This document shows positions 3,791 through 53,854 of a stretch of DNA of 64,000 bases, piece by piece (the stretch's first letter is position 1; every line of letters begins with the position of its first letter). The stretch spans positions 1-64,000 of the forward strand of contig NW_026250449.1 of the NCBI RefSeq assembly GCF_024521635.1, in the 5' to 3' direction. The notes beneath the pieces were generated by a model that saw nothing but the letters and a program-made list of their open reading frames with translations, searched no databases and had not been told where the DNA came from. Made by a program: the position numbers and the translations under genes. The DNA comes from Tricharina praecox. Its lineage: Eukaryota.

Positions 3791-4160
3791 GCGAGCGTCG
3801 AGGCATACAATGTTGTAATACCTCAGTCATCTGCTTAGTTACGGTAGAAGGTACGGACCTTCACCCCTACTTCCTACACTGTCGAGACCCTCCTTCTTGC
3901 ATAGACACAATACGATACATCTCTTAACCATCATATTCTTCACCATTTCCAACACACAACATCACACGGACTACGAATGACTTTGTGTGATGTGATGCCC
4001 GAGATCCACAGAGCAGCGGGTGATTACGACAGCTTGGATTTCGTACATATACTCTATTAGGAGGCACCCTAAGTTTCATTTCTACGGGAGGTCATGTTGC
4101 CTATCGCTAACCCGAGCGGCGAGCCGTAGCCGACAAGTACAGGGTCAGTAGAGCTGGCTA

Positions 4161-24460: not shown

Positions 24461-24879
24461 TAGTGTTCTACATAGACCAGACCGGTCGGCCAACCGGACG
24501 GGTCGGTCGGGATATATCTCGACCTGACCATGGCTTTGGCCGGTCGGGATGTAACCCGAACGACCAGACCTTGCCAGGCTCGGTCGGCCCAGGTCGGCCG
24601 ACGTCGGGTTAACTGCTAATCCTATCAGCCGCAAAAAAATCCTTAGTTTCTAGCGGTTTTTAGAGCATTTCCGGCTTCAAATGTTGTTTCTTAGCCGGAC
24701 CTATCCCGACCCGACCTGAAAATTTGTGCTCGGGATATAACCCGACCGACCAGACCAAATTTTTTTTTAGTCGGGATATATCCCTACCGACCAGACGAGA
24801 GTTTTTTTTAGTCAGGATATATCCTGACCGACCCGACCATACCCAAATTTGGTCGGGACTGGTCTATGTAGAACAACTG
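24461..24879 (+). mobile_element. hAT-like MITE family A copy (no TSD)
   Basis: TIRs tagtgttctacatagaccag / ctggtctatgtagaacaactg; subterminal gtcgggatatatcccgaccgacc repeats. Confidence 0.85.
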
Positions 24880-32825: not shown

Positions 32826-33413
32826 CAGTGTTCTACATAGACTAGACCGGTGCGCCGACCGGACGGGTCGGTCGGGATATATCTCGACCCGACCAGACCT
32901 GATTTTTTTCTGGTCGGGATATACGCCGACCGACCAGACCTAGGCTTTAGTAGGTCGGGATATATCCCGGCCAACCAGACCGTGCCAGGCTTGGTCGGCC
33001 CAGGTCGGCCGACGTCGGGATAACAGAGAAGCTGATCAGCCGCAACATTTTCTGTCATAGTCGTGCGTCCGGAATGTGTCAATGACGACCACAGCAATGC
33101 TGGAAGTGTTGGGCGTCCGAAATGTTACTATAAATGTCGCAGAAATGCTGGCAGACAACAGGAATGCTGGCAGAGGGATGGGATGATTGCGGCGACTCAG
33201 GCGGATTTGAAGGAAATTGGGGAGATGTTGGCTACCCTATGCGAGGACGATCTAGTTTAGATAGGTGATTGGAAAGGGTACAAATTTCAATGTGTATACT
33301 TTCTTAGCCCGACTTATCCCAACCGACCAGACCAAGTTTTTTTTGGTCGGGATATATCCCGACCGACCCGACCATACCCAAATTTGGTCGGGACTGGTCT
33401 ATGTAGAACACTG
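32826..33413 (+). mobile_element. hAT-like MITE family A, 588 bp
   Basis: TIRs cagtgttctacatagac / gtctatgtagaacactg; 8-bp TSD cacccaac/caccccac; empty site at about 30581-30615. Confidence 0.92.
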
Positions 33414-34461: not shown

Positions 34462-35268
34462 CTAACCTCCAATCTTCTCGACAACCCACCTCGCAGCAGC
34501 CGTGCCATAGACCGTAACATACATCAGATGTGCAAGGGTATTCAAACCCGAGTCGCAGAAGGTATCTCCAGAGTCGCAGTAAGAACGGAAGACGCTGGCG
34601 TACGACTCGCAGCTCTGGTCGCTCGTGCGAGGGAACAGCCCGCTGCCTGTCGACGTCCCCACGTGGTAGGTTTCGTCCTTGGTGTGGCGGGGGTCGCCCA
34701 TTTGCAGGACTGCTACGACTGCGGGAGGTTAGCGGGGAAGAGTGAGGAAGGGAAGGGAAGGGGGACATACCCTTCGACGTGAGACTGGAAGCCATCGGCT
34801 CGGTCTTCGCGCCGATAAGCAATCCGCCGCCGCCGCACATAGCATCGCCTGCCATCTTGTTAGTCGTCTTCCCGACCGCATCCGCATTTACTACTTACCG
34901 ATTATATGCGCCCCCTGCGAGTACCCCATGAGCACGATCTTCGCGTCTGGGCAGCTAGCCGCGTACGCCGCAAACTGCTTCTTTACCGCCGCGGTCCCCG
35001 CCTGCGAGGAGGTGTCATACGGTGACAAAAGCGCGGGGTAGTCGATTGCCTCCTGCGTCACCGTCTTGCTCGAGCTGCTAATCACTGCCGCTGCGACGCT
35101 GCCGATTACCCCATCGCCCGCCGCCTCGGTGGAAGCGCGCGCTACGAGGATGTGGATATCGCTGCAGGACGTATCTGCTCGTGATATGAGTGGTGAATGT
35201 GGCACTGCCACGGAAAGGGTCGAGAGCGCGAGGAGGAGGGGGAGGAGGGTGGGCGTGATGAGTGGCAT
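34462..35268 (-). CDS. Secreted CE5 acetylxylan esterase / cutinase-family protein (3 exons)
   Basis: Signal peptide; CSDIHILVARASTE; SCPDAKIVLMGYSQGA nucleophile motif; MGDPRH; SYCDSGDTFCDSG...HLMY. Confidence 0.93.
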
Positions 35269-37577
35269 CGTTGAGGTGGGCTAAAGGAATGAGTGAATGA
35301 CGGTTGATGAGGTGGAATGGATATGCGCGGGATCCGTCTGGTATTTGTAGCTTTCCGTGAAGCTCCCGGTCTACTAGTAATGACTGCCCAGAGATGCTGC
35401 GATGCTGAGGAGATCGCGCGGTCCATTGTTTCAACTCCACGCCCTGAACCTACCGTTCCATAGCTTTGCCGGAATTCCGTGGACTTCCTCTGGAACAAAC
35501 GGCATCCGTATGCATCGCCAGCATATTCCCCATTCCAACTTCCAACTTCTGGTATGTACCATTACCCCGCCTTAGAAAAAAAACCTAAGCCTCAACCTTG
35601 GCGCGACAGATATATTGCGCGATTACGTCCTACAGGCTACACCTCATCTATTGCACGCTCGATCGATTGCACGCGGGGTACCTGCAGGCTGCAAGGAAAA
35701 ATAAGCCTTTTCGCCCGCCAGCCCGCACCACCGGAGATGGTGCGACATCCGGTGGGCAGGGGCATCTCTCGGTAGCGGGGCCGAGACTAAGACAGAGACC
35801 AGTGGCACTTCGCCGAGGCATAATTATTGCGCTAGCGGTAAGCCGCGGCTGCGGAGGTTCACGTAGAGTGCGGATGACGACTCGCGAGCCAGAGGTCATA
35901 CATATACGGGAAATGAGGCGAATCTGACTCGCCAGTGGATGCGTATCCCGGTGTCCGAGCCGCTGGGATTTATTCCCCGCTGATGGAAAGGGCCCGATAC
36001 CTATCGTATGTACAGTATCTGCCATGATCTATACATAGTAAGGTCGAATGCAATGATGATTAGACGAAGGAAACAAATACTTCCCCGGGTAAATGTTATC
36101 CGGTGATCGGGCAGGGTGGTCTCATCATTCCTGTCTCATCTCATGGGTCACGGTGGAGTCGGGATCCGAACAGGGGTCGACTATCGGGACGGGGATCATC
36201 GGTGATGCATAATCCAACGTCACCGTAACCAACCCAACCATAACCGTAGGGTGGGGGACGAGAGATAGAGAGTGAATCACGCGTACCACGGGTGAAGGGA
36301 TGCAATCATGCAAATATAACAGTAGAGTAGATGACCGGAACGGCGGGAAGGAGCGAGACAGGATGCTACTATCGAGTCACGTTGCTGAGGTTGCGAACGT
36401 GGCCGGCATCCGGAAGAAGCGGAGCAAAGCGAATGAACGTTGCTGACATATGCTATTGCAGTTTATCTGTTTCGCCGCGATGTCATGGCATGTTCCGCAC
36501 TTCCGATTGCGAGGTACATATAGTTACATGCATATCTGCAGGCTCTTCACGGCGATACTATCTACGCCTACTAAACGATTGCAAGTGCGAGTGACGGCGT
36601 TCCTGCAACGCATCATGATGGATCACCGATGAACCCTCCATCACGAAGAACAAGAAACGCTTTCGTTCATCACGACGCAGATGGTATTAAATACAGCCGA
36701 GTGAGCCCGACTCGGCGGAAAGGCGGACGAGAGCCTCTGTCCCGACAGGAAGCCGGTACTTAGCAATAACCTTATCCAAACCCCGGGTTCCGTATTTCCG
36801 ACACGTGCCTCACGAGTCTTTCTCGCTCCCCCGACATGTCACGGGTGATGGCCGGACAGAACGTACTGGAGTCAACTGCAGTTTACTGCCGGACTGCAGG
36901 ACCCCGTTCAGCAAAACCACAAACGGGACGGATTACGCTTTTCCCCTCCAACAGGCGAAGGAGACTGGAATGTTCCGGTCCAGTCCATCCGGACCGAAAT
37001 AAAGTATGTGTTCTAGCCTGCCGGGCAAAATGGGTTTTTTATAAATAGACCGGCCCGCGGGGCAAGCGACTTGTAGAACACCGCACATAGCCAGCCCTAC
37101 TAGGTTACCAAGGGCTTGGTGGCTGTGGCTCGCGGCAGCGATACGCAAAAAAGTAACATGCGTTCACGTAGAATATAAAATTTAGTTTTATCCTACATAC
37201 TGGAGTCCATGGACATAAAGAATCAGAGCTATCGTACGGAACTACCCGCGGCTCCGCGGTTCTCCGGCGTCACCCCAGCAGCCATCACTCGGGATAGCGA
37301 GTGATGCTAGATGCTTCACCGGCAGCGACAAGCGTTAATAACGACTATCAACGGCGATTCAACTTCAGCACCAGAACCGCGTGGGTTATCTAATCTCCAC
37401 GCGAGATCTCTCCTCCTCAACTTCGTCCCCCTCTTTCTCTCCCTCTCTCTCTCTTCTTCCTACAGGTAACACAACGAATCCCACGGTCGACAACCCCCCA
37501 CCGATCAACAAATTACAATTATCTACTACAAACCGTTCGAATCAACAACCTCTACAATTTCCCCAACGCCAGATACA

Positions 37578-37904
37578 ATGGCTACCCCTACCAGCCCCAC
37601 CATCGAGACCGCCAGCCCCGCCTCTGCCTCGAACCACAAGGTCCTCGAGTTCTTCGCTTCACCAGCCGAGCTCGTGGATAGTTTGGTCGGCGTCGCAGCC
37701 GAGGCTGCCGACACCGACGATCGGATGGAGATGGACGTGGAGATTGAGATCGAGAAGGGTATCCAGATCGACATCGAGATGAACATGGAGGTGGAGATGG
37801 GGATGGAGGAGAAGATGGAGGATATGGACGAGGACGAGGACATGGGGGAGGATGAAGACGAGTATGAGGATATAGAGGCGGATTCGAACATGGGCGAGTA
37901 CTAG
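37578..37904 (+). CDS. Acidic Met-rich microprotein, unit 1 (108 aa; family stop would be at 37934)
   Basis: MATPTSPT...NHKVLEFF...LVDSLVGVAAEAAD plus an acidic tail; ACAATGGC start context. Confidence 0.6.
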   Translation: MATPTSPTIETASPASASNHKVLEFFASPAELVDSLVGVAAEAADTDDRMEMDVEIEIEKGIQIDIEMNMEVEMGMEEKMEDMDEDEDMGEDEDEYEDIEADSNMGEY

Positions 37905-38105
37905 GAGGAGGACGAGAATATGGAGGAGGCATAGGCCTGAGGGAGCGTTTTTTTCTCTTTTTTTCTCTCAATATTACCCCAAATACCCCTGTCAAACATA
38001 TCGAATCGGTTACTTGACATGTCTATAAACAGGGCGGTAGGCCTCTATATATACACCTCCGTACGTTGCCGCTAGCGGCCCCTCGTCCGGTGGCGCCGCC
38101 CCGGC

Positions 38106-38260
38106 CAATGTTCTACATAAACCAAACCGGTCGGGCCGACTGGACGGGTCGGTCGGGATATAACCCGACCCGACCAGACCTGATTTTTTTCTGCTCGGGA
38201 TATATCCCGACCGACCAGACCATACCAAATTTGGTCGGGACTGGTCTATGTAGAACACTG
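38106..38260 (+). mobile_element. hAT-like MITE family A, 155-bp deletion derivative
   Basis: TIRs caatgttctacata / tatgtagaacactg; perfect 8-bp TSD gccccggc. Confidence 0.92.
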
Positions 38261-38310
38261 GCCCCGGCGCCCCATCGGGAGCGGCACTACCCAACGGCCA
38301 CATCTCTGAA

Positions 38311-39133
38311 CATGGGGGAGGACGAGGACGAGGACGCGGACATGTAGGTGGGTTCCGGCATGGACGAGGACAGGGAAGAGGATGAGGACATAGAGGACGA
38401 TGCCTGGGTCTTCAGGAGCTGTTATCTTTTTATTTCGTTTTCAAATGTATCGCGAAAACTCCATCCTCGATGATTTTGTATGTTTTCGAGCACGCCACGA
38501 CGCATCTCTAGTGTGCAGAAAGTGCAGAAAGATAAATCAAGGATCCCCACCAGACTCGACTCACAGGATGTTATTCACGCCGTGCATGTATGCCCGCCAC
38601 CGCATAATATGTGTGTGTGCCGATAATATGCCCGGTCACTGTGTGATATGTATTATTCTCGAGGGGCCGGACGTCGTCGCCGAAAAGATGGTGGTTGCGC
38701 GTGGCCAGTGCTGGAAGAGTCAGTAAGAGGTAAACCATCTGTCAAGCCGTCGACGTCTAAAACATCCGCTCGCATCCATTCGTCGCTCTCATTTATTAGT
38801 CATTACATACAGAGGTATCGTAGGGCCGTATCCAGCTCTACTAACCCTTGGCATGTCGTCCGCAACTTGAGGCACCGATACGCCACATGCGTTCGTGTAG
38901 AGGCATATAATGAGTACCTCGATATCTTGGCCTTACTGGCGGAACCATGGGCTAGTTTGGCGAGCGAGAGCGCCGACGCTGCCGCCACCGATGAGGAAAT
39001 GATGAATGGCGAGACGAGCCACATGGGAGGCGGAGAGAAGGGACAGATGATGAAAGTTAAGGCTCACAACAGGGCGGAGAAAATGGAGGAGGACGTGGAC
39101 ATGGAGGAGGGTGAGGAAGAAGATGAGGCCTAG
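38311..39133 (+). pseudogene. Two C-terminal fragments of the microprotein family (units 2 and 3)
   Basis: MGEDEDEDADM*VGSGMDED...EDDA at 38311-38405, and ESADAAATDEEM...EKMEEDVDMEEGEEEDEA* ending at 39133; each is followed by the family 3' block. Confidence 0.65.
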
Positions 39134-39716
39134 TAGGGCGCCGGGAGCAGTTATCTTTTTCTTTCTTTCTTTCAAATTAATCGCGGACTACTACATCCTT
39201 AATGATTTTGTCTTCTTTCGAGCTCGTCTCGATGCACCCCAGTTATGTACCAGATAGTTGTAGGGTCGTAGCTAGCTCTACTCACTATGTACCTACTTGC
39301 AGGCTGTGTGTTCGAGACGGCTTTACACAACATGCGTTGCTGTAGATATGAAACTCTTGGCCTCTGCTTACAAACCTGAAAAGGCTTACACACGGCAGGC
39401 AAGCTGTCGTAACTACCTGCTGCATCGTGGGTCCTAGGGCGGCGCTGCATGCGCATCACTCGCCTCGGGTGACATCTGATGCCGCCACGGTAGCGAAAAG
39501 TTTCAATTACGACTCAACGGCGATTCAGCTTCAGCACCTCGTAAGATTACGCTTCGCTACTACTAAATCTCTCCCCCCCAAATTCTTATCTCTGTCTCTC
39601 TCTCTTTTCTTCCTCCTACAATCCATCCGACGATCAATAACACCAACCGATCAACAATTGTCTACTCCAAACCATCCGAACCAATAACCTCTGCAATTCC
39701 CTCGCCGAGAGAAACC

Positions 39717-40118
39717 ATGGCCACCCCTACCACCCCCACCATGGATACCGCGAGCCCCGCCTCCGCCGACAACGACAAGGCCCTCGAGTTCTTGGCCGGA
39801 CTGGCTGAGCTCATGGATAGTATGGCGAGCGGGAACGGAGCCGAGGCTGCCGACGCCGATGAGCAGATGGACATGGACATGGACATGGAAGTGGCGATGC
39901 AGCTGGACTTTTGGATGGGGATGAAGATGGATACAGATGTGGAGATGGGGATGGAGGAGAAGATGAAGAAGATGGAGGTCACGGCGGACGACGAGGACGA
40001 GGAAATGGGGGAGCAAGAGGACGAGTACGAGGACACTGAGAGGGGCGCGGGCATGGACGAGGATGGGGACATGGAGATGTGTGCGCACATGATGATCAAG
40101 GACATGGAGATAGCATAG
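39717..40118 (+). CDS. Acidic Met-rich microprotein, unit 4 (133 aa, intact)
   Basis: MATPTTPT...NDKALEFLAGLAELMDSM...AEAADADEQMDMDMDME... Confidence 0.7.
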   Translation: MATPTTPTMDTASPASADNDKALEFLAGLAELMDSMASGNGAEAADADEQMDMDMDMEVAMQLDFWMGMKMDTDVEMGMEEKMKKMEVTADDEDEEMGEQEDEYEDTERGAGMDEDGDMEMCAHMMIKDMEIA

Positions 40119-40727
40119 GGCTTCGGGAATTGTTGTCTTTTTTTTTCTTCTTCCAATATTACCATAAATACCCGCATCTTCAATGACTTTTTTTATATCC
40201 TTTCAATCTCGTCAAGAGTGGCGACGCCGCGATAGTTATTTACCAGATACATGTAGTAGTTACCATAGGCTTGTAGCCAGGTATAAATATTGAGATGCCG
40301 ACCGCGGTCCGGCACCGATATGCAACATGCGCTCCTGTAAAAATGGAAATTTTGGTTTCTCCGTGCTGGAGTATTTGTCCGAATGGAGGCTATCGTACTT
40401 ACCCGCTGCTCCGTGCTTCAAAAGACAGAGATCATCAATTTATTTCGCATACCTCCTATCTACTTAGCCACTATGCGCTTTGTTTTTTCTTTTTGTTCTT
40501 TAATTAGGTACACCGCGCTTCTCCGGCAGCGCTTCACAATATATCACTTACAGCGAGTGACATCAAACGCCTCGACGGTGGTAGCGGCAAGGCTCACTAA
40601 CGACTGAACGGCGATTCAGCTCGAGCACCGAGTGATTTGTCTTTTCTGCACGCGAGAGCTCTCCACTCCAACTATCTCTCTCTTCCTCTCTCTCTCTCTC
40701 TCTCTTCTTCCTCCTACACCATCCATC

Positions 40728-40820
40728 CGACGATCAATAACCCTCGACGATCAATAACCCTCGACGATCAATAACCCTCGACGATCTATAACCCCCAACG
40801 ATCAATAACCTAACGATCAT
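40728..40820 (+). repeat. 17-bp tandem repeat CGACGATCAATAACCCT, about 5-6 copies, in a unit leader
   Basis: Directly visible; a similar expansion occurs at about 48590-48670. Confidence 0.9.
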
Positions 40821-40861
40821 CAAATCTCTACTCCAAACCGTCCGAACCAACGACCGTAACA

Positions 40862-41167
40862 ATGGCCACCCCTACGACCCCCACAATGACGACTTTCGCC
40901 TCCACCTCCGCCTCGCCCTGCAACGACAAGGCCCGCGAGTTCCTGGCCGGAATGGCTGACATGATGGATAGTTTGGTCAGCATCGGAGCCGAGGCTGCCG
41001 ACGCTGATGAGATGGACATCGACGTGGACATTGAGATCAATATCAACATGGGGATGGACATGTGGGTGGACGAGAAGATGGATGATATGGAGGTCACCGC
41101 GGAGGACGAGAACGAGGACATGGGGGAGGGCGAGTACCAGGACGGAAACATGGAAGTGGAAGCGTGA
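40862..41167 (+). CDS. Acidic Met-rich microprotein, unit 5 (101 aa; premature TGA, family stop at 41230)
   Basis: MATPTTPT...NDKAREFLAGMADMMDSLV; the frame continues after the TGA to EVMEEA*. Confidence 0.55.
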   Translation: MATPTTPTMTTFASTSASPCNDKAREFLAGMADMMDSLVSIGAEAADADEMDIDVDIEININMGMDMWVDEKMDDMEVTAEDENEDMGEGEYQDGNMEVEA

Positions 41168-41823
41168 ATGGATGGGGACGAGGATATGGAGGTGGATGCG
41201 GACATGGACGAGGTCATGGAAGAGGCATAGGCCGGAGGGAGCTACTTTTGTTACGTTTTCAATATTACCATAAATATCCGCATCTTCAATGACTTTTTTG
41301 TATCCTCTCGATATCATCACCTGTCGCAACGCTGCGACAGGTATTTACGAGATTTACAGTTGTCGTAGGCTCATAGCCAGCCATAGTAGTGACCATAGAT
41401 ATGCGGGCTGCGGATCGAGACAGCGATACGATACATACGCAATACGTATTCCGTAAAATTGGCATTTTTGACTTCCTGTCCTGGAGCACTGGTGCTGAGT
41501 CCAAGCTGTAGTAACTACCTGCTGCATGGATGTGGTTCTCCGAGGGCGCTGCATGCGGCATCACTCGTAGCGAGTGACATCACATGTCTCATCCCAGCTG
41601 CAAGCCTCAATAGCGACTCAACGGCGATTCATCTCTAGTACCGAGTGGGCTTTCGCTTCGCCACCACTAGATTACTCCCTTGCAACTTTAGTTCTCTCTC
41701 TCTCTCCCTCCTACACCATCCATCTGACGATCAATAACCCCCCACCGCCACAACAAAATTACAATTCTCTACTACCAACCATCCAAACCCGCAACCTAGA
41801 CAATTCCCACAACGGCAGACACA

Positions 41824-42177
41824 ATGGCCACCCCTCCCTCCTCCGCCATCCAGACTATCGCCCCCTTCTCCGCCTCCAACGACAAGGCCCTCGATTTCTT
41901 GGCCGAGCTCATGGATAGCTTGGTTGGCGTCGCAGCCAAGGCTGCTGACGAAGATGAGATGGAGTTGGACATGGAGAATGAGATAGGCATGGGTATGGAC
42001 ATCGAAATCGAAATGAACATGGAGATGGGGGTGGGAATGGAGGAGAACATGGAGGATATCCAGGTCAGGTCGGGGGACGAGGACGAGGACATGGGGGAGG
42101 ACAACAACGACGACGAGGACAAGGACATGGAGGAGGAGGAGGTCATGCAGAAGGGCGAGATAATGAATGAGGCATAG
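41824..42177 (+). CDS. Acidic Met-rich microprotein, unit 6 (117 aa, intact)
   Basis: MATPPSS...NDKALDFLAELMDSLVGVAAKAAD... Confidence 0.7.
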   Translation: MATPPSSAIQTIAPFSASNDKALDFLAELMDSLVGVAAKAADEDEMELDMENEIGMGMDIEIEMNMEMGVGMEENMEDIQVRSGDEDEDMGEDNNDDEDKDMEEEEVMQKGEIMNEA

Positions 42178-43188
42178 GCCCGTGGGAGCGTTTTTTTCTC
42201 TTCTTTTTTCAGTATTACCATAAATAACCGTATATTCAATGACGTTTTTGTATCCTTTTGATCTTATGATGAGTCGCAACGCCGTGTCAGTTATGTACCA
42301 CATACATACTAGTTAGTTGTTATCATGGGCTCGTAGTCAGCTCTGCTCTACTCTTGTAGATATCCTATTCTGTCGGCACTCTAGTCTCGGTTCCCCTGCG
42401 CTGGCGGTGTGTGCTTGCGCGGCGGGATATTGGGCAGTGTGGCCGGGATCTGGTGTTCTCTCTCTCTCTTTCTCTCTCTCTCGTTCTCTCGTATTTCATT
42501 CCCATTATCCGCGGGCTACCGCCGCCCCGGCTACGTTCCATTCGATCGGCCTAGTTTAGCCGACTTCAACATCAATCGCGGCGGCGGTGTACACCCCTTC
42601 ACTCTTCCGCCGCCGATAAATAACTCGTGGCGATTGCGATTGCGAGATACATCTTCAGTTTATATCGCATGTAGCCCTTCTAGCCTATGACGGACTGGCA
42701 CTCCTTCCCTGCCCACTCTGGCCGGCCGGGAGTTGAGACCCCGCCACCAGCCAGCACGATGTGGCGACGCTGCATGCCAAACCAAAAACACCATACGGAG
42801 CTGCACCCAGGAGATTTAGGTACCTACGTACTTTTCTTTATTTCTTACTTCCTCGTAACGAGCGCAGACACAGTACTGTACTGCTCCGCGCGTCTCCGGC
42901 GTCACCTCACACTACAGCACTTGATGCGAGTGACATCACATGCCTTTTGGCAGCGACAAGGTTCTATAACGACTGTCAATGGCGATTCAGCTCTAGCTCC
43001 GAGCGTTTTGTCCTTTGGCTACTCGCGATCCCTCCTCCCAAACCCCCCCCCTCTCTCTCTTTCTATCTATCTCTTTTTCTTCCTCCTACAACATCCATCC
43101 GACGATCAATAACCCCCACCATATAACAATTCTGTACTCCAAACCGTCCGAGCCAACACCCTCAACAATAAAATCAGCGAACTACACA

Positions 43189-43534
43189 ATGGCCGGCACC
43201 ATCGCCCTCAGCATCAAGACCGCCAGCCCGGACGCCGCCGACGCCGACAACCAGATGGACGTTGGCATGAAGACGGACATGGACATAGAGATGGGCATGG
43301 AGATGCACATCCGGATGGGGATGAAGATGGATAATCGATATGGAGATGGGGATGGAGGAGAAGATGGAGAAGATGGAGGTCATAGCGGTCGACGAGGACG
43401 AGGACATGGGGGAAGAAGAGGACGAGTACGAGGTCATGGACGAGGGCGAGGCCATGGAGGAGGGTGTGGGCATAGACGAGGGCGAGGCCATGGAGGAGAG
43501 TGTGGGCATGGACGAGGAGATGAAAGAGGTATAG
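43189..43534 (+). pseudogene. Microprotein unit 7, core helix deleted and frameshifted
   Basis: MAGTIALSIKTASP joins directly to DAADADNQMD; frameshift near 43335 before MEMGMEEKME. Confidence 0.65.
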
Positions 43535-43651
43535 GCCTCAGGGAGCATTTTTCTTTTTCAATATTACCATAAATACCCGCATTTTCAACGAAATTTTTGT
43601 ATCCATTCGATCTCGTCAGGAGTTGCGACGCCGCGGCAGTTATGCAGCAAA

Positions 43652-44190
43652 CAGGGCTGTCAACCGTCCGTCCGGACTACAGTCCACTAGTGGACTATAG
43701 TCCCATCCCGTCCCGGGCAGGCTATCCAGAGAACTGATCCATTCCGCCCGGAGGATGGAATGCCTGGATACCCGCCAGGTACCTATAAGTACCTAATAGC
43801 ACTAGCGTGCTATGCTGACTACTAGTTTGCGAAGTAGTATGACCACCAACAGAATTTTCAGACTCGAGCAGAATTTTCAACGTCGTCAAACAATCGACCT
43901 CAGAGGATAGAAACTGCTGTTAGTAGGAATAGGGATGACGTGAAAGTTCTGTACCGTGAGAGACACTTCGAAATGGAGCCGCACAGCCACACATCCCCAC
44001 ACCGGCGCCACTGTGTAGCGCCACGCCGCTTGCATTGTCCTAGTGTTCCAGTCAATTCCGGGCCCTGTAGGGTATCCGTCCTCATTTCTCCAACCCGGAA
44101 GACTGTAGTCCCCGGTCTCCTTAGCCCGACTAATTCCGTCCCGGGCCGGGCAACCTCAAACACGGACGGGACGGACGGTTTACAGCCCTG
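43652..44190. mobile_element. hAT-like MITE family C (no TSD)
   Basis: 22-bp TIR cagggctgtcaaccgtccgtcc / ggacggacggtttacagccctg with 1 mismatch. Confidence 0.85.
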
Positions 44191-44721
44191 CGGCCGATGC
44201 GAGGAAGTTGGTGAGGAGGATAAGCAGTGATTGGGTGTGGAGCGGAAGCAGAACACAGTGGAGAGACGCCACCGGGGCTTTCACCTTGACTGGCCAGGGC
44301 GGGCAGGAAACGGAGTTCGTGGGTTCGCCATAGTCTAGATACGCGGCATGCGGAATAAAACAGAAAGATCTCACTCTCGATCACAACCAGCAGTTTCGAC
44401 CCACGACGAATTCGCGCCGGATAGTCAAGCCCCCAGCCACGACTGCCTAGAACTACAAGCAATCACGAAGAACGGCACGGTTTTTTTACTTTTTTACTTT
44501 TTTTCTGGATTTCTATTTAAAAAAAAAGATGACAGACATTACACCCTTCCATAGTCTCCTTGTCCCACCATTGGAAAACCTGGATCCGCCGGTCACTAGG
44601 AAAAGGTATGGACTCAATTGCAACTACACTCGAGCCTGGAAAATACTCGAGGCAGAGGGGAAGGGGGGAAAGGAATTATCGAGGAAGCAACGTAGAAACA
44701 AAAGGAAAATGAGGACCTACC

Positions 44722-46530
44722 TTACAAGGAGGCCATATAGACCTCCTCGAGCCGCTGTCTGACCTCTTGCAGCCACACACGCCCCTCTTCCAGCGTTGCC
44801 AACATGTACACCTCCGCCTAGTGTCGCAGTTGCTCCAGCTGCTGCCATCGCTGCTCGCAGAGCCAGATGAAAGACACCCCACCCATACGAAGCAACTCAG
44901 GCTGCTGCTGAGCCCACAAGACCAACCTCTGGTACGTCTCCAGCAGGCCGGCCTCGCTCTGCGTGTTGGCCACAGCTAGTGCCTCTGACAGGTAGTCGTA
45001 TTGAAAAGAGACAATACGCTCGTACTCACGCTCATGGAGCTGGTACTCCTGCAGAAGTTGCTGCCGCAGCGTCATCAGAGGGGCGCTGCTAGGTTCCGGC
45101 TGCTGTTGCGACTGCCGCTGCAGCTCTTCGTACCGTCGCAGCGCTTGGACCTGCCGCTCCCCGTAGATCATCAGACCCGTCTCGAACTGCTGCTGTTGCT
45201 CGGTCTGGGTGAGGAACGTCGGAGGCGCGGACGAGATCACTTGCTCAGGTACCGGTGACTGTTCCCTCTGAGATTGAGCCTTCAGCGGCTGTGGCTGGAC
45301 GGGGGTAGAGGCTGGCCCGGGAGCAGAAGTAATCGGCGCAAATTGCACCTAAGCCTGGGCCAGAGCTTCGGCCTTCGCTTGCGCGATAGCGTCAGCTGTT
45401 GCCCGCTTCTTTGCCAGAAGCCGGGCCTTCTTCTGCTCCGCCTGGACTCTGGCTTGCGCCCGAGCCTGAGCGTCAGCATTTGCTTTCGCAATTCCCTCAG
45501 CTGTGGCGTTTGCCAGCCTCTGCTCGTCCGCATCACGGGCAGGTTCCCGAGCTTTGGCATCCGCTTATGCTTGGGCTTGGGCAGAAGCCCTCGCCTTTGC
45601 ATCAGCTTCCGCCTGAGCTCGATCACGAGCCTCAGCTTCCACCTATGCCTACTTCTGGCGGGCCACCTTATCAGCCTGTGCGCGAGCACGAGCCTCAGTG
45701 GCCGCCTGAGCCTTGGCTGCCGCCTCTTTCTGGAGGTCCATTTCACGGGCCCATGCCCGAGCCTTGGCCTCTGCTTCTGCTTGGGCTTGGGCAACAGCCT
45801 TCGCCCGCACATCCGCTTCCGCCTGTGCCCTAGCACGATTGGTCTCAATTTCCTCCATTGCCTGACGCTGGAGCTCAGCATCACGAGCCCGCGCTTGAGC
45901 CTGAGCATCCGTTTCCACCAGAGCTTGGCCAAAAGGCCCTGCCCTCGCATCCGCTTCCACCTGCTGCCTAGCACGAGCCTCAGCATCGGCCCTGCCCATG
46001 ATCACCGCTTCCGCGAAGTTTCTTGGCTTGGACCTTGGATTGATCTCCCAAGTCAAGATCTGTCTGAAGGCTCCGAGGACTTTCGTCTTCGTCGGCTTCG
46101 ACAGATCCGTCCGCGTATCGGCCATCTTCTTCATCTGCCGAATCTCATCTGCTAGCAGTGCGACAGCCACAGTGTTCCCCTTCTTCCAACAATCTTGGGC
46201 GGCCACCACGAGCTCTTCAGCCCGCTTTACCAGGCCCCTGTCGCGCAATTCGGTCAAGGCCGGAGGTGGGGAAAACCCAGAGACCGGCCGACGCGAATTC
46301 TCCGCGTGCGGTAACTTGGCGCCGTCTGGATCCTCGGTCGCCCGTCTCTTCGACCCGGTGCTAGCACCAGGGTGGACGGCGTGACCGGGACCAGGAACGG
46401 ACGCAGGTGTTGCTGGGGGGGCAGAGGGGGGAGGAGGAAGAGGAGGGGCTGGGTGTTGACTTGCCGTCCGGGACGTCCACTTTGCGGGTGGATCCCCTTC
46501 AGGTTCGTCCGTCGCAGTTCTTTTGAACAT
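44722..46530 (-). pseudogene. Ala/Gln/Arg-rich coiled-coil repeat protein, about 600 codons, five in-frame stops and no frameshift
   Basis: ORFs 45649-46530 and 44818-45348 share a frame; reading through gives ARQK*A*VEAE...AQAQA*ADAK...LAQA*VQF...LRH*AEVY...YMASL*. Confidence 0.75.
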
Positions 46531-47558
46531 GGTGGGGGTGGGGGAAATGTGTGGAAAAGTGAAGATTGTAGATGGTGGGGGGGGGGAAAGTGGTCAAATG
46601 GGTGTGCGATGTAGAGAAAAAAAGAAGAGGAGAGGAGGGGTGGGGATGGGGCTTTTTATAGTTGAATCTGCTATCGGCGAAAACCTGTTTTCGACCTCAA
46701 CTAGCCGTTGCAGCCCTTCATGTGCTGTCACTCGACACCTGAAAAACTATTTGGCCGACAGTCAGATGACTGAGGCCACGTGGAGCAAGATCTCCATGCC
46801 CTAGAGAGGTAGTAAGAAATGCATCAATGTTCACATTGATGGCAGCAATATTCTCCCGCTATTTGTGGACAGTATCATGATAATGCCTGCCGTGGCTGGA
46901 GGCACCGATACGCAACATGTCAAACTTTGGATCGGCGGCCAAGCTTAGGCGGCGCCTCAGTTTTGAAGTGAGGTCTCGCCGCGGATGATATTACGTTCTT
47001 CTTTTTCTCGGTATCAAATAAGGTATCTCCTCCTGTCTACCGAGATCATCCAACGCAACATGCGCTCCTGTAGAAATGGAATTCTTGATATCTCCGTAAT
47101 GGAGCATTTGTACCGAATGGCGGCTATCGTACCTACCCGCTGCTCGGTGCTTCAAAAAGTAAAGATCATCCATTTATCTCGCATACAGCCTAACTCCTTA
47201 GCCACTATCCGCCACTTTTTTTTTCTTCTTCTTTCATTGGGTGCTCCGCGCTTTTCCGGCAACGCTTCATAATGCATCAGTCAATGCGAGTGACATCACA
47301 TGCCTCGCCATAGCGACCAGCGTCAATAACGACTCTCAACGGTGATTCATCTTCGACACATGGTGAGCTTTTGCTTCACCGCCACTAGACTTCTCCTCCC
47401 CAGCTTCCTCTCTCTCTTTCTCCCTTTCTCTCTCTCCTCCTCCTCCTACAGCATCCATCCGACTTTCAATAACCCCCCACCGCAACAACACAATTACAAT
47501 TATCTACTACCAACCATCCAAACACACAACCTCCACATTTCACCAAACGCCAGACACA

Positions 47559-47951
47559 ATGGCCACCGCTACCACCACTACCACCCACACCATCAAGACT
47601 TTCGCCTAGGCCTATCCCTCCAACAACAAGGCCGTCGATATCTTCGCCGAGCTCATGGATACCTTGGTTGGCGTCGGAGTCAAGGCTGCCGACGCAGACG
47701 AGATGGAAATTGACGTGGAAGTTGAGATTTATATGGGAATGGTGATGGAGATTGATATGAACATGGAGATGGTGATGCGGATGGACGAGAAAATGGAGGA
47801 TATGCTGGTCAAGGCGGAGGACGAGGACGAGGACATGGCGGAGGATGAAGAAGAGGACGAGGATATGGTCGCGGGTGCGACTATCGACGAGGATGAGGAC
47901 ATGGATGAGGGTGATGATATGCACGAGGGCGAGATCATGGATGAGGTATAG
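47559..47951 (+). pseudogene. Microprotein unit 8 with in-frame TAG at 47607-47609
   Basis: MATATTTTTHTIKTFA*AYPSNNKAVDIFAELMDTLVGVGVKAAD...; otherwise a full 131-codon frame. Confidence 0.7.
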
Positions 47952-48727
47952 GCCTGAGGGAGCGTTTTTTTCTCTTCTTTCTCAATATCACGATAAATAC
48001 CCGCATCTTCAACAATTTGTTTTGTATCCATTCGATCTCGTCACGAGTCGCGACGCCCCGCCAGTTATCTGTCAGATACATACTAGTGTTATCGTGGGCT
48101 CGTAGCCAGCTTTAATCTACTCTATATATCCTGATTCCTGGCTGGTCGGATCTCGAGTCTCGGTTGGATCTCCAGTGCGAGCGAGCGAGCGAGCGTGCGT
48201 GCGTGCGTGGGGGAGCCCGTCGCGCCTGGCGCGACAGGCGTGTAGAATACGAGGTACTTACAAAGTAGTTATTGTAGCGCCGCATGCTTTCCCGTAAAAA
48301 TTGAAATAGAACTTTTGGTTTCTCCAATATATAGGAAGGTATGAACATACGGAATCCAAGCTGCCGTACAGAACTACCCACTGCTCCGCGCTTCTCCGGC
48401 GGTGCTTCACAATGCATCACTCCAGTCGAGTGACATCACAAGCTCCTTCGCCGCGACAAGCCTCACTAACGACTTTCAACGGCGATTCAGCACCAGCACC
48501 GATTGATTTGTCTTTTTTCTAAGCCCGATCTCTCTTCCCCAACTTCCTCCCTCCCTCCCTCTCTCCTCTTCCTCCTACATCGTCCATTGCACGATAAATA
48601 CCCCCGACGATCAATATCCCCCAACGATCGATAACCGCCAACGATCAACAACCCCCGACGATCAACAATTCTGTATCTCAAACCTTCCAAACCCACCACC
48701 TCTGCATTACAATCCGCGACCGAAACA

Positions 48728-49138
48728 ATGGCCACCCCTAACAACACTACCATTCCCACCGTCAAGACTTTCGCCTCCGCCTCTGCCTCGCCCTCCAACC
48801 ACAAGGCCCGCGAGTACCTGGCTGGACTGGCCGACATGACGGATAGTTTGGTCGGCGTCGGAGGAGAGGCTGCCGATGCCGACGATTGGATGGAAATCGA
48901 CCTGGAGATCGAGATGGCCGTAGGTATGGAAATTGACATCGCGATGGATATGGAGATACAGATGGGGAGGGAGGAGAAGATGGCGGATATGCAGGTCACG
49001 GCGGACGGCGAGGACGAGGATATGCGGGAGGACGACAACGGCGACGAAGACGAGAACATGGAGGTAGTTGCGGGAATCAACGAGGATGAGGACATGGAGG
49101 TGGATGCGGGCATGGATGAGGTCATGGAGGAGGCATAG
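48728..49138 (+). CDS. Acidic Met-rich microprotein, unit 9 (136 aa, intact)
   Basis: MATPNNTT...NHKAREYLAGLADMTDSLVGVGGEAAD... Confidence 0.7.
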   Translation: MATPNNTTIPTVKTFASASASPSNHKAREYLAGLADMTDSLVGVGGEAADADDWMEIDLEIEMAVGMEIDIAMDMEIQMGREEKMADMQVTADGEDEDMREDDNGDEDENMEVVAGINEDEDMEVDAGMDEVMEEA

Positions 49139-49751
49139 GCCGGATGGAGCCACTGTATGTTACTTTTTCAATATTACCATAAATGTCCGCATCTTCAATG
49201 ACTTTTTTTTTTCCTTTCGAGCTCGGCGCACTGGCCGCGAAAGTTATGTAAAATAACAGATCCTTACGAATTAGTTATTGTAGGCTCGTAACTAGCTCTA
49301 CTAACGATCGACTGATCGGCAGCGGCTGGAGGCACCGATAGGTGCGCAACATGCGTTCCAGGTGAAGAATATATAGAACCTCTGCTTTCTCCGAACATAC
49401 ACGAAACTATGTACATACGGGACCCAAGAGACGTACAGAACTGCCCGCTGCTCCGCGCTTCTCTGGCAGCGCTCCACGATAGATCACTCCGCCCGAGTGA
49501 CCTCACATGCCCCCACGGTGGCAGCAGCTAGTGTGAATAACCATTTTCACTGGCGATTCAGCTTCAGCACCGGGTGGACTTTCGCTTCGCCGCCACTAGA
49601 CTTCGGCTCCCCAACTTCTTTCCTCTCTCTCTTTCTTCTTCCTCCTTCACCATCCACCAGAAGATCGATAACCCTCCACCGCCACAAAATAATTCTCTAC
49701 TCCAAACCGTCACAACCCACACCCTCAATAATACAATCAGCGAACTACACA

Positions 49752-50111
49752 ATGGCCAACATCACAGCCCCCACAACCAAGACTTTGGCCTCCGCCTCCG
49801 CTGCCAAAGACAAGGCCTTCGATTTCTTGGCCGTGCTCATGGATAGCTTGGTTGGCGTCGCAGCCGAAGCTGCCGACCCTGACGAGATGGAGTTGGACAA
49901 GGAGACTGGCATCAATATGGAGATGGGGATGGAGATGCGGATGCAACAGAAGATGGAGGATATGCAGGTCGCTGCGGTGGAGGAGGACGAGGACATAGGG
50001 GAGGATGAAGACGAGGACGAGGATATGGAGCTCGGTGCCCGCGTGGACGAGAATCAGGATATGGCGGTGGGTGAGTACATGCAGGATGGCGAGGACATGG
50101 AGATGGTCTAG
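49752..50111 (+). CDS. Acidic Met-rich microprotein, unit 10 (119 aa, intact)
   Basis: MANITAPTT...KDKAFDFLAVLMDSLVGVAAEAAD...; CACAATGGC start context. Confidence 0.7.
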   Translation: MANITAPTTKTLASASAAKDKAFDFLAVLMDSLVGVAAEAADPDEMELDKETGINMEMGMEMRMQQKMEDMQVAAVEEDEDIGEDEDEDEDMELGARVDENQDMAVGEYMQDGEDMEMV

Positions 50112-50856
50112 GGCTTCGGGAGTCGTGATCTTCTCTTCTCTCTTACAATAACATTACCATAACTGTAATCTCAATGACTTTCTTTGTATGCTTTCGATCT
50201 CGTCACCAGTCGCGACGCCGCGACAGTTATGTACCGGTACATTTACTACCTGTGTAGTAATCCCATGCTCGTAGCCAGCTCTACTCTAATCTGGATATCC
50301 TAGATATCCGGTCGGAACTAGACCGTCGAGTCCCGGTTCCCCAGTGCGTGAGTGCGTGTGCGAATTTTACGCCGTGCGATTGGGATCCGCTGATCTCTCT
50401 CTCGTATTTCGTTCCCATAGTTCGCTGACTACCGCCATCGCGGCTGCGTTCCGTTCGATCGGCTCCACTCCAGCCGCTTTCAACCGCACATCCCACCACC
50501 TCCGCCGCCGACCAATGACTCCTGGAGCAAGCCGGTTCCCCGCCGGCCAACGAGATCGAGAGAAAGCGAGTGATATTCCCGGAGTTACACTGTTATAAAT
50601 CGCAATAAGCGCCATACAGGTAACAGCTTCATGTTCCGATTACAGCTATACTACCCAGCCCAACGAGGTAGCCAGCCACTGCAGCCTATATACTAAACGC
50701 ACGGACAACCGGTTCGTATATACAGTCTCCCGCCAGCGCAAAACTGGGCAGCGCAAGAATAACAACCGATGGGAAACTATCCATTGTACAAAAAACGATC
50801 CACCCAATTGCCCACCGACGCACCACCGGAATCGGTAGTGGTCGCTGCCTACCAAG

Positions 50857-52320
50857 CTACGTGCCGCCTGTCTCCGGTTTCCGGCCGATGACGTGCCACC
50901 TGTGTCGTACGGTTAGTCTACGCGTAGTAGTTTGGTGATGCGGATGGGGGCGGGGGCGGGGGAGGATGCATACATAACCTGATAAGCGTGAACCTTCCTA
51001 CTCTCGACATCCGCCTGGGCGTTCTTGCACATGTTCATGACCGTATCCGCGCTGAGGCCCAAGAAGCGGGTCATTGGCGCCATTCCGTAGGACTCAAAGC
51101 CGGTTGCACTGTTGAGCGCACCAATGAAGCCGGCCCGTTTCATCTGCGGGTTTTTCGGCCAGCCGCCCCATGGCTGTTTAAACTGTTTTACCTGGAGACA
51201 CGGGATGTGTCAGCTCGGTGGATAGGTAGCCACGGGGGTGGCTGGTGCAAGCTTACGGTGACGTCGACGAACCCCGCCTCCTCGACCATACGCTTCAGCC
51301 CGTCGCCGGTCGGCTGCATCAAGTTCGCGATCGAGATCGCCTTGACGAAGTTCGTCATGTACGTTTCCAGCGCCGAGCCTTTGTACGAGTCGTCGTCGCA
51401 GTACGTGTGCGTGCCTATCTCGGCTAGCTCGACGTATCCGCCTCGCTTGGTATGACTGGCGCGCACCCGGTCAGCAGGGGGGGGGGGGGGGGGAGGGGGG
51501 GGGGGTGGAAGTGACGACGAACAGGTACATCTGCTCAAGATATTTCCGCCAGTCCCGGATGCTCTGCGCGACGTTGCGCGAGTGGATGAGGTCGAAGTAA
51601 TCCTGTTGGAGTTAGTCAGTCGGTTGTCGGGGGCGTGATTGGCAGCACGCTGCTGCGGTCATGTGTAGTAAATACCTTGCGGAAGGTCCACTCCCCCTCG
51701 AGATCGTCGACTTCGAACCGGACGTTGGGTACCACCCACTCGGGCTGGATGGGGCTCAGATCCACACCGACAACTTCCGCCATTGGGAAGAACTCTCCGG
51801 CATCCAGCGCCCAGATACCCGTGCCGGTGCCGCAGTCGAGGATGTGCTGGGGATTGTCGCCGATGGGCGCCACGAAGAGCGAGCCCTTGAGCAAGAGCAG
51901 CTGCAGATGGTGGTACATATCGAGACTTCACCAGCACAGATTTAGCTGTGCACTACTGACGACGGGGCGCCAACGCACTGGGGGTACCGACCGGTCTTGC
52001 TCCGTCTCGTCGTTGGGCAGCAGGTACTTGCCCTCCTGCAAGCGGTGGTAACGGCGGCCATTCTCGTAGACGTAGTCGACTATGGACGAGGTTATGCTGT
52101 GTGTGGAACTCTCGCTACGGTGCGTGTCAGTCGTCGGATTGTGCGGCTCTGGAGTTAGGTGAGAACGTACAGGGTGGAGGAGTAGTCCGAAGACGAGAAT
52201 TCCGGATCGGTGTCGACTTCCAACTAGACACCGTCAGCGCCACGGACAGCACGGGTACCTCACGTTCGCGACAGGTGGACATACCGGTAGGTGATCGGCG
52301 ACGTCTGCTGCTGCTGCCAT
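50857..52320 (-). CDS. LaeA-like SAM-dependent methyltransferase (multi-exon)
   Basis: YVYENGRRYH...YLLPNDETEQDR; ILDCGTGTGIWA; GVDLSPIQP; FEVDDLE; GGYVEL; PWGGWPK; final exon HVIGRKPE. Confidence 0.92.
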
Positions 52321-53166
52321 ATTTGAGAGAGGTGGTGGAGGTTTGGCGGATTGTAGGGTGGGGGGAGGGAGGGCTTCGGGTATCCGGCGGCTAACAAGGG
52401 ATAGAGACCGATAAGTGAGGACAGAGATGAACGGCACGGCGGCAACAGCGTACTTATATATATATCGGGGGGGGGGGTGGGGGGGGGGGGGGGGGGTAAG
52501 CGCAGCCTACCTTCCTGGGAGGGATGCGCAGGACTACGCCAATTCCGATCCACGACGGTGCCGTGTCGTGCAGCATGCAGCATTGATAGTGGTTCCCGGC
52601 TTGGCGGTCCAGATACCGGGGCAGCGCCACACACCTGCATATGACGGCGATGGGGGCGTGGAACAGACTTTTTGGAGCGTCCTCCGCGTGTCCCCGTGGT
52701 ACTCTATATACAGGCCAGCCGTTTCGGTGCGTGTCTCGACCGAATGCCTTTGTCTCCAGTCCACAGTCTTCCCAGATCGGCGTGAGCTGGAGTAAAAGCA
52801 ACTGTCTTGGTGACTGCACGTATGGGGACCAGTGCAGCAGAGAAATTCCGGCTGCAGTGCTGGTAGCGGGTGAATTTTCGCATCGGATGTTCTGCCGCGG
52901 TTTTCAGGCAGTGCCTCACACAACATCACTCGCAACGAGTGATGAAATATGCCTCGACGCCGGCGACAAGGCTCAATAACGACTAGACGGCAATTGAGTT
53001 CCTGGCATCGCATGATCTTCACACCCCCCTTTGTCTCTCTGTCTTTCCGTGTTTTTCTTCTTAATCACCACCGCCAAACGCTCCAGACACTAAGTAAACA
53101 CCACACCGAGAATGAAAAAAGCGAAAACCACCACTGCGAGTCTACGGCAATTGTCACAATCTCAAA

Positions 53167-53323
53167 GAAGGCTATTGCTTCCATTCCTACCACCTCCACC
53201 CCCACGCCCACACCCACTACCGGCAATAACGCCACCCTTGAGGCAAGCAGAAGCTCCCTCGACATCTTTGATTTCTTGGCCGAGTTGAAGACCTGCTTCA
53301 ACTCTCGAGGACGACGAAGATGA
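53167..53323 (+). pseudogene. Highly degenerate microprotein unit 11
   Basis: Upstream element at 52926 is intact; Thr/Pro-rich stretch then IFDFLAEL; no ATG at the expected position. Confidence 0.45.
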
Positions 53324-53854
53324 CGTCGCGTCAACGAGGACCAACAGGAGGACAACTGTGTAAATATATTACCATGATTTATTTGGGTCGCAAGCAATTA
53401 CTGATTAAACAAAAAACGTATGATCCGTGGGCTGTGAGCGATAAAGTGCTACATAGTGGAACGGACTGCACAGTGCACCGTGCGCATGGACGGCGCAGTG
53501 CGGCCGAAAGAAGCTTAACGTAGGTAGGCGGTTGACCCTTGCTCGGCAGTGACCACATCACTCCATACCGGTACTTCGGTACGGTCTTCCCCGCGGATCG
53601 GCGTACACTGGAGAGCGGTCGGTAGATACATCATACATCATAATTCTTTACCCAACTCAATCTTATCCTTGCCACGTGGGTGCCACACGGCGGTGACGGG
53701 ATGAACAGATACCAAGATCCTCATGCAGCACAGCGTAGTAAACGTAGGTACTGCACCCGTCGGAAATCTTTTCATCCACCCCGTTCTTCTAGACGTTCGT
53801 TCCCAGCACTGCGCAGTCTTCAGTCTCCCTACTAGATACCACGCTTCTCAGCTA

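Follow-up and report, generated by a model that had tools for sequence, protein, structure and literature searches.

Tricharina praecox, an ascomycete of the family Pyronemataceae (Pezizales), appears among the sequenced post-fire fungi in the consulted excerpt of PMC7055920. The window analysed here is a stretch of 64,000 nucleotides, positions 1 to 64,000 of the forward strand of contig NW_026250449.1 (assembly GCF_024521635.1). It contains a tandem array of short units, most of which carry an open reading frame (ORF) for a small, acidic, Met-rich protein. Judged from the sequence, the array is probably a genuine lineage-restricted protein-coding family, and the best reading of its present state is a family in slow decay, with about half of the copies dying.

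Organisation of the array

Units were detected by a blastn comparison of one unit (48.15–49.43 kb) with the window, a MAFFT alignment and an nhmmer profile scan. Eight near-complete head-to-tail units, designated A–H and about 0.8–0.9 kb each, lie on the + strand at 37150–43660 and 47210–50250. The matched extents are 37216–38010 (A), 39390–40254 (B), 40498–41357 (C), 41498–42309 (D), 42853–43651 (E), 47232–48083 (F), 48347–49255 (G) and 49415–50243 (H); the slightly wider unit boundaries are as follows.

37150–38010, + strand: unit A; ORF 37578–37904 (108 aa) with a premature in-frame TAG, open to the ancestral stop at 37932–37934
39360–40260, + strand: unit B; ORF 39717–40118 (133 aa), intact
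40480–41360, + strand: unit C; ORF 40862–41167 (101 aa) with an in-frame TGA, ancestral stop at 41228–41230
41500–42310, + strand: unit D; ORF 41824–42177 (117 aa), intact
42850–43660, + strand: unit E; pseudogene, ORF pieces 43189–43572 and 43340–43534
47210–48090, + strand: unit F; ATG at 47559, TAG at codon 17, 98-aa ORF 47655–47951 from an internal ATG
48350–49270, + strand: unit G; ORF 48728–49138 (136 aa), intact
49400–50250, + strand: unit H; ORF 49752–50111 (119 aa), intact

The starts of neighbouring units are 971–1315 bp apart, and the identity between units is 0.68–0.77 for every pair. Six further fragments of the family, two of them inverted, were found in the window.

38310–38500, + strand: C-terminal tail and 3′ flank (profile positions 610–825)
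38916–39257, + strand: heavily decayed unit in two profile pieces (407–482 and 670–858)
52888–53289, + strand: promoter with palindrome at 52926–52942 and N-terminal part of the ORF, beyond which it is broken
3387–4045, − strand: decayed inverted unit; the C-terminal half is ORF 3511–3750 (79 aa), with 3′ flank and promoter pieces
68–257, − strand: inverted promoter piece with palindrome at 206–222
29411–29628, + strand: solitary tail and 3′ flank (profile positions 634–852)

A previous interpretation made from the letters of the window, referred to below as the sequence-only reading, had described about 11 head-to-tail units, which corresponds to the eight units and three fragments on the + strand inside 37130–53330. 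The spacing that it gave for the units is correct, and its inverted copies at 1–250 and 3.1–4.2 kb are present as 68–257 (−) and 3387–4045 (−). The ORF list agrees with its count of four intact copies (starting at 39717, 41824, 48728 and 49752), two slightly truncated copies (A and C) and a broken remainder. The solitary fragment at 29411–29628 was absent from it.

Foreign DNA of about 3.5 kb (43652–47210) separates unit E from unit F and interrupts the array. Between units A and B lie two decayed units and an element resembling a miniature inverted-repeat transposable element (MITE).

Anatomy of a unit

In the alignment, the 5′ to 3′ order of a unit is a palindrome block, a second conserved block, a CT-rich tract, the ATG, the ORF, the stop and the 3′ flank. 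The palindrome, part of a putative promoter, has the arms TCACTC and GAGTGA with a variable centre and is found about 300 bp 5′ of each ATG. Its pattern has 14 matches at eight loci, every one of them in units or fragments, as against 0.82 expected. Units B and F carry versions with one mismatch; the pattern is matched in the other six units.

37285–37304, 40545–40560, 41561–41577, 42918–42933, 48417–48433 and 49484–49500: putative promoter palindrome (pattern match)

The second conserved block, CAACGGCGATTCA, has ten matches at up to two mismatches versus 1.75 expected. The eight units account for eight of them, and the other two lie in the inverted fragment (position 148) and at 3064. A 17-bp repeat in the putative promoter is confined to units C (40728–40810) and G (48591–48665). 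The context of the ATG, ACAATGGCC, is conserved across the units, and the start ATG and the ancestral stop occupy identical alignment columns in all eight. About 150 bp of conserved 3′ flank come after the stop. The conservation of the flanks across units, reported earlier, is borne out by an alignment identity of 0.68–0.72. Since the gaps B/C, C/D and G/H measure just 130–220 bp, there is no room for anything else between these units. Scans of the array for Rfam families (E ≤ 0.1) and tRNAs found none, and the alignment shows no terminal repeats on the head-to-tail units. Co-regulation of the copies through the common promoter blocks is plausible.

State of the copies

Units B, D, G and H are intact. 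The premature stops of units A and C are in frame and lie 10 and 21 codons, respectively, ahead of the ancestral stop, up to which the frame is kept in both. In unit F the whole ORF is in frame apart from the TAG at codon 17. Relative to the other copies, the premature stops in these three copies require transversions or double changes. In unit E, whose branch is the longest of the tree, a deletion has removed the helix segment and a 1-nt insertion breaks the frame.

Evidence for coding

Insertions and deletions were counted as distinct gap blocks in a DNA-level, not codon, alignment of the units. The length of a gap block is a multiple of three in 16 of 17 cases in the coding sequence (CDS) and in 16 of 39 cases in the flanks (Fisher p = 2.6e-4; 5/10, 5/14 and 6/15 for the separate flank regions). 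The sole out-of-frame block of the CDS is the frameshift of pseudogene E. In the non-repetitive N-terminal half, the indels measure 9, 6, 9, 3 and 3 nt, all in frame.

The ratio of nonsynonymous to synonymous substitution rates (dN/dS; Nei–Gojobori, 21 pairs from seven copies) is 0.60, with a bootstrap 95% confidence interval of 0.44–0.80; in none of 1000 replicates did it reach 1. The Thr/Pro N-terminus has a ratio of 0.97, the helix 0.58, the alternating region 0.48 and the tail 0.51. The corresponding ratio of proportions of differences (pN/pS) is 0.64 in the ORF frame, the minimum of the six frames (0.79–1.26 in the others). The differences at codon positions 1, 2 and 3 are 0.236, 0.186 and 0.329, the third being the highest.

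The G+C content of third codon positions (GC3) is 0.74–0.84 in all seven copies examined and 0.74–0.82 over the non-repetitive first 50 codons; the G+C content of the flanks is 0.37–0.53. The family uses GAG (88%), AAG (93%), GCC (53%) and ACC (58%), whereas in four neighbour genes the Glu, Asp and Lys codons are near even, and GCC and ACC reach 30% and 32%. In filamentous ascomycetes, codons ending in C or G are typical of well-expressed genes. A neutral simulation started from the codon consensus (codon alignment) gives 9.0 in-frame stops in seven copies, as against three observed (P = 0.019). Two of the ORFs were also predicted by the gene caller of the source, and two others are present letter for letter in ESM Atlas. 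The five coding tests agree, and they point to genuine protein-coding genes.

The same signatures could be explained by a relic array, in which a single round of amplification of one ancestral gene was followed by the drift of all copies towards pseudogenes, so that the signs of selection belong to the past and the ORFs are functionless. Stops or frameshifts in four of the eight units, together with the six further fragments, are in keeping with such a relic, as are the almost equal identities of CDS and flanks and the MITE-like and other repeat insertions that interrupt the array. The dN/dS among intact copies (0.67), moreover, is not below that of stop-bearing ones (0.52). However, at a terminal divergence of 0.14–0.22 neutrality predicts the 9.0 stops of the simulation, as against three observed, and also many out-of-frame indels, of which one is observed in eight units. 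High GC3 has been retained in all copies despite a difference of 34% at synonymous sites, next to flanks with a G+C content of about 0.5 or less. A functionless relic is rated as unlikely.

A non-coding repeat is another candidate: the units would be minisatellite-bearing regulatory or long non-coding RNA units, and the ORFs would be open since purine-rich (GATGGA)n is stop-free. Within the ORFs, Tandem Repeats Finder (TRF) reports arrays of period 6 and period 18; the protein is of low complexity in its centre, and antisense ORFs of 83–212 aa cover the same stretch. The ends of these antisense ORFs, however, vary between units, whereas every unit conserves the context of the ATG and the position of the stop. 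The first 50 codons are not repetitive and share both the high GC3 and the solely in-frame indels; the lowest pN/pS of the six frames is that of the sense frame, and Rfam is empty at the threshold given above. A non-coding repeat appears very improbable.

The predicted protein

The proteins contain 10–17% Met, 30–36% Asp+Glu, 2.5–5.9% Lys+Arg and no more than one Cys; their net charge is −29 to −38. Protein alignments show the four-part architecture described in the sequence-only reading: a Thr/Pro/Ala/Ser N-terminus, a conserved helix segment, alternating hydrophobic/polar runs and an Asp/Glu/Met tail. AlphaFold2, supplied with the seven-sequence alignment, predicts one helix at residues 19–40 of copy D, with a mean predicted local distance difference test (pLDDT) value of 51. 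The hydrophobic residues of the helix segment are spaced i, i+3/4, i+7, and its hydrophobic moment is 0.37–0.46 in six of seven copies; in copy F the top moment (0.49) sits in the alternating region and not in the helix segment. In a charge–hydropathy plot, all six proteins tested lie on the disordered side of the boundary. The same six proteins contain no basic clusters and no segments of transmembrane (TM) grade, their top 19-residue hydropathy (0.66–1.52) being below TM level. A homodimer prediction scored 0.00, a value that weighs neither for nor against self-association. The product would be a cytosolic or nuclear polyanion with one N-terminal amphipathic helix and an otherwise disordered chain.

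Alternating hydrophobic/polar runs of 9–20 residues are found in every copy. They correspond to a degenerate GATGGA hexamer, and the period-6 and period-18 arrays lie within the ORFs. Met is present in at least six of seven copies at ten alignment columns. MxM pairs number 27 in sum, versus 13.4 expected from shuffles, and MxxM pairs eight versus 13.2.

As to function, the first choice, and a tentative one, is that the proteins might serve basic proteins as an electrostatic decoy or buffer. The second choice, a sponge that takes up soft or divalent metal ions through its MxM motifs and carboxylates, is rather unlikely. It would amount to an intracellular Met/carboxylate buffer for Cu(I), Ag(I) and divalent cations, its dosage set by tandem copies, as a Cys-free analogue of CUP1. 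The Met content and the conserved Met columns, arranged as MxMxMxMxM...MxxM, speak for such a sponge, as does the doubled number of MxM pairs; tandem amplification and the strong codon bias are consistent with a dosage-driven product. According to the excerpts of two published studies, the ‘Mets’ motifs with which Ctr transporters bind Cu are MxM and MxxM (PMC6981102), and the MxMxxM motif is selective for Cu(I)/Ag(I) (PMC9117721). On the other hand, MxxM is not enriched, His and Cys lend no support and the Met pattern follows straight from an ATGGAG-type hexamer repeat. Neither a signal peptide nor a membrane segment is present in the proteins, whereas thioether Cu sites are usual in oxidising compartments. 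The copies are old and diverged, with no recent dosage amplification, and domain scans of selected ORFs of the window identified no copper-related gene adjoining the array.

Search for relatives

Pfam gave nothing over its cut-offs for seven family ORFs, and PDB gave no match at E ≤ 1. ESM Atlas returned no usable feature match; its models have pLDDT values of 0.53–0.55, and their structural neighbours were not used. A word-indexed search of 5.8 billion clusters returned just two of the array's own proteins. An exhaustive HMMER search of 1.84 billion representatives (1.84e9) returned the same two proteins and one false positive (P0003). In metagenome contigs of the Joint Genome Institute (JGI), none of 597 pattern matches was confirmed, and word searches of the open-access literature found no account of this acidic Met-rich family. 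The earlier description of an unrecognised, lineage-restricted family is in line with these searches, in which no genuine non-self hit was obtained.

P0003 is a polyketide synthase with five carrier-domain repeats. Acyl carrier protein domains resemble the family in being acidic, about 80–100 residues long and furnished with a ‘DSL’-like tripeptide near residue 35. The E-value of 2.9e-11 stems from five repeated weak matches to the linker and helix I, and the hhalign probability is 7%; the family's DS is not aligned with the carrier serine. The family proteins show no PP-binding Pfam match at E ≤ 1, and their model, which is of low confidence, has one helix and no four-helix bundle. P0003 is regarded as a false positive because the match is inflated by repeats, the hhalign probability is low and the aligned part is the linker and helix I.

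History of the array

The maximum-likelihood tree of the units is a near-star, in which internal branches make up 9.7% of the tree length and terminal branches measure 0.14–0.22 substitutions per site. Groupings with support of at least 80% are C+G (100%), D+F (83%) and B+E (80%). Because the tree is star-like, a single old burst is indicated, after which the copies diverged independently for a long time and without concerted evolution. Repeat-induced point mutation (RIP) was ruled out as the cause of the divergence or of the stops by a transition/transversion ratio of 0.95 among flank substitutions and by normal RIP indices.

A younger event copied a tail fragment and adjoining DNA in inverted orientation. 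The segments 38310–38735 and 3144–3608 are 85–90% complementary, and the fragment at 38310–38500 therefore belongs to this younger inverted segmental duplication.

Metagenome contigs from four soil runs of one study cover the array. All four runs listed for this DNA are of the DNA type, with no RNA run among them, which has no bearing on expression. Those of run X1 are identical to it or nearly so. In runs X2 and X3, which were compared over pieces covering units A, B and D, the array versions differ by 1–2.5%, and two ORF-overlapping pieces have gaps of 24 and 3 letters. The 40 best-supported variants in the metagenome contigs all fall outside the ORFs of units A–H. Some contig joints skip 1.3–2.3 kb (one or two units); their sides are shorter than 30 letters, and they were not used as evidence of copy number. 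Contig depth in run X1, which does not equal copy number and is weak evidence, is about 4–19 over the units, 9–12 over the single-copy flank at 50.8–52.4 kb and 78–249 over the MITE-like element and two other repeats.

These depths bear on a further alternative, that the unit belongs to a transposable element (TE) or satellite dispersed through the genome. The region is repeat-rich and rearranged, with the MITE-like element, a high-copy repeat at 43.6–44.7 kb and inverted segmental duplications, and solitary fragments of the family occur at 29.4 kb and 0–4 kb. The copies, however, are strictly head-to-tail and lack terminal repeats, and the contig depth over the units is like that of the single-copy flank, as opposed to the values of the true repeats. 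No transposase, reverse transcriptase or other TE domain was found in the scanned ORFs, which comprised the seven family ORFs and sets of 14 and 69 ORFs selected from the 151 stop-to-stop frames of 110 aa or longer in the six-frame translation, with two shorter ones added. Dispersal as a TE or satellite is extremely improbable.

Genomic neighbourhood

NLR-type genes are located at 4603–8647 (−), 13823–20262 (+) and 59781–64000 (+). Their ORFs include NPHP3_N/NACHT, a GPIID winged-helix domain, ankyrin repeats, SPRY pieces and, below threshold, a single weak match to PigL_N. The NACHT–ankyrin genes occupy 5–8.6, 13.8–19.6 and 59.8–64 kb. The genes are probably split by introns or frameshifts.

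The MITE-like element is present at 24718–24875, 32870–32981, 33335–33410 and 38182–38257, the last copy directly after unit A. It is based on a unit of about 41 bp with the palindrome TCGGGATATATCCCGA followed by CCGACCAGACC. In run X1, the depth over the copy after unit A is about 80, versus about 8 in its flanks, and many contigs end at 38225–38261. The summed contig depth of the same run is 170–249 over 43612–44713 and 78 over 42510–43060, again versus about 8, and loose contig ends are frequent at 43652 and 44271. Both segments are probably high-copy repeats inserted in or beside the array; their ORFs have no match in Pfam.

The gap in the array contains an unrelated gene at 44818–46530 (−), with ORFs 44818–45171 and 45649–46530. 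The latter is 100% identical over 293 aa to a 464-aa T. praecox ‘hypothetical protein’. A paralogue with 66% identity lies on another contig, and the gene is devoid of Pfam domains; an internal repeat of about 134 nt (45495–45976) encodes an Ala/Gln/Glu/Arg-rich segment. Numerous variants and an elevated depth were observed for this gene in the metagenome contigs.

A gene for tyrosyl-DNA phosphodiesterase (Tdp1) lies at 20723–22843 (+) in two adjoining frames, reflecting an intron or a frameshift. Its best match is a Pezizales protein with 48% identity (proteins of at least 616 aa were searched). An inverted partial copy of the N-terminal part is found 11 kb away at 9874–10410 (−), the inverted repeats I6, I7, I17 and I19 matching at 71–89%. 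Another inverted segmental duplication, of about 0.8 kb, links 1372–2180 with 25063–25864 (82–87% complementary) and overlaps part of a 333-aa ORF at 1775–2776 (−), which has no Pfam domain.

Directly 3′ of the inverted fragment at 3387–4045, ORF 2697–3518 (−) contains a perfect 9-bp microsatellite, GGTAGGAGT ×14 (2910–3038), encoding (TTP)n. A paralogous piece of this ORF, with no Pfam domain, follows the 38.3-kb fragment at 38400–38726 (+). Ahead of the array, a cutinase-domain ORF piece is located at 34894–35280 (−; E 2.7e-22). Just 3′ of the array is an ORF piece of a class-I methyltransferase (Methyltransf_23; 51616–51918, −; E 7.3e-09). Between unit H and the last fragment, two poly-G runs of about 29–30 nt (51477–51505 and 52467–52496) are separated by about 1 kb.

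Interpretation

In the proposed mechanism, each unit of about 0.85 kb would be a complete intronless gene with its own promoter and an ORF of 100–136 codons. A single old burst of unequal crossing-over would have produced the copies, which would then have diverged independently under weak purifying selection and with no gene conversion. The body of the protein would derive largely from a degenerate (GATGGA)n hexamer, which would account for the alternating Met/Ile/Val–acid stretches and the Asp/Glu/Met tail. The amphipathic helix may serve for docking or self-association, and the polyanionic region with its many Met residues may offer a binding surface of low specificity.

Several points weigh against a genuine coding family of this kind. 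Stops or frameshifts are already present in half of the eight units. The constraint is weak, with a dN/dS of 0.6 overall and 0.97 over the first 23 codons, and the identity of the CDS (0.74) is scarcely higher than that of the flanks (0.68–0.72). Slippage of the 6- and 18-bp repeats may partly explain the in-frame indels of the central and tail regions, the excess of GAG may be inherited in part from the hexamer repeat and the significance of the stop deficit is moderate (P = 0.019). The absence of homologues rests on protein-level searches, which unannotated small ORFs in related genomes would escape. As for function, Met-only Cu(I) sites are usual in extracellular or periplasmic proteins, and the family proteins, unlike the usual hosts of such sites, have no signal peptide.

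Overall, the sequence-only reading is partly supported. The support covers the family, its lineage restriction and its birth-and-death pattern, whereas the suggested functions (an acidic nucleic-acid mimic, an activation-domain or chaperone-like peptide, a Met-based metal binder, a conflict or antidote factor) stay mere candidates. The birth-and-death process that it proposed is reflected in an old burst that has left four intact copies, three single-stop copies, one frameshifted copy and fragments. Among the observations that would have spoken against it are dN/dS near 1, indels in random frames and the profile of a dispersed transposon or satellite. The dN/dS is 0.60, the indels of the CDS stay in frame and contig depth, which is weak evidence, gives no sign of high-copy dispersal.

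A bolder idea, and a long shot, is that the proteins form an undescribed class of Cys-free Met/carboxylate polyanionic sponges, disordered until they bind metal (or a basic protein), docked by the helix and serving as a stress adaptation of a fire fungus. If true, such a class would be the thioether counterpart of a metallothionein array, arisen largely by expansion of an ATGGAG-type hexamer. Should the Met/acid composition indeed mean metal or basic-protein buffering, this would be new protein chemistry for fungal stress biology. The array is in any case an unusually clean one, with eight old paralogues, each with its own putative promoter, standing side by side in states from intact through to dead. 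Its ORF is largely traceable to a hexamer repeat, so that the passage from a low-complexity repeat to a protein under selection, and the rate of gene death, can be tested on it.

Comparison with known systems

The CUP1 array of yeast is tandemly amplified, with nearly identical repeats and variable copy number. The present array is similar in its short ORF with its own promoter, its head-to-tail arrangement and its units of 1–2 kb. Cup1, however, binds copper via cysteines, whereas the family has 0–1 Cys, and its units are 68–77% identical and date from an old burst. Disordered polyanions, prothymosin alpha among them, and acidic proteins that mimic DNA, the classical ones of which are folded, share with the family a length of about 100–135 aa, an isoelectric point near 4, 30–36% Asp+Glu and predicted disorder. 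They show no homology to the family, which lacks a basic nuclear-localisation cluster and has far more Met.

In NLR-linked amyloid signalling pairs, a HET-s-type motif is common to the NLR and its effector. A comparison of the family profile with the six-frame segments of the window (E ≤ 10) for such a shared motif matched family copies only. The link between the family and the nearby NLR genes is one of proximity alone.

Ctr transporters, as described in the excerpts of PMC6981102 and PMC9117721, resemble the family in the MxM clusters of their ‘Mets’ motifs, the disordered acidic context and Met positions conserved between paralogues. Their N-terminal regions are extracellular and their transmembrane helices carry MxxxM, and Cup1 is described as a copper metallothionein (PMC6981102). 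In contrast, the family proteins, 101–136 aa long, have no TM domain, extracellular targeting or sequence homology to Ctr, and MxxM is not enriched in them.

The closest genomic parallel is provided by Neurospora crassa, in which lineage-specific genes and their paralogues cluster with HET-domain/NLR allorecognition genes (PMC10684091); telomere proximity and expression behaviour are central to that study. As far as its excerpts go, the likeness extends to genes without homologues outside the lineage, clustered duplicates, HET/NLR surroundings and a rearranging, repeat-rich region. The present case differs in belonging to Pezizomycetes, in its unrelated protein family and in an unusually regular array of eight head-to-tail units, each with its own putative promoter. 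Orphan families near fungal NLR/HET loci are common, and their origin and function are seldom understood. The protein family described here is new, but its genomic kind, a lineage-specific cluster near NLR genes, is already known.

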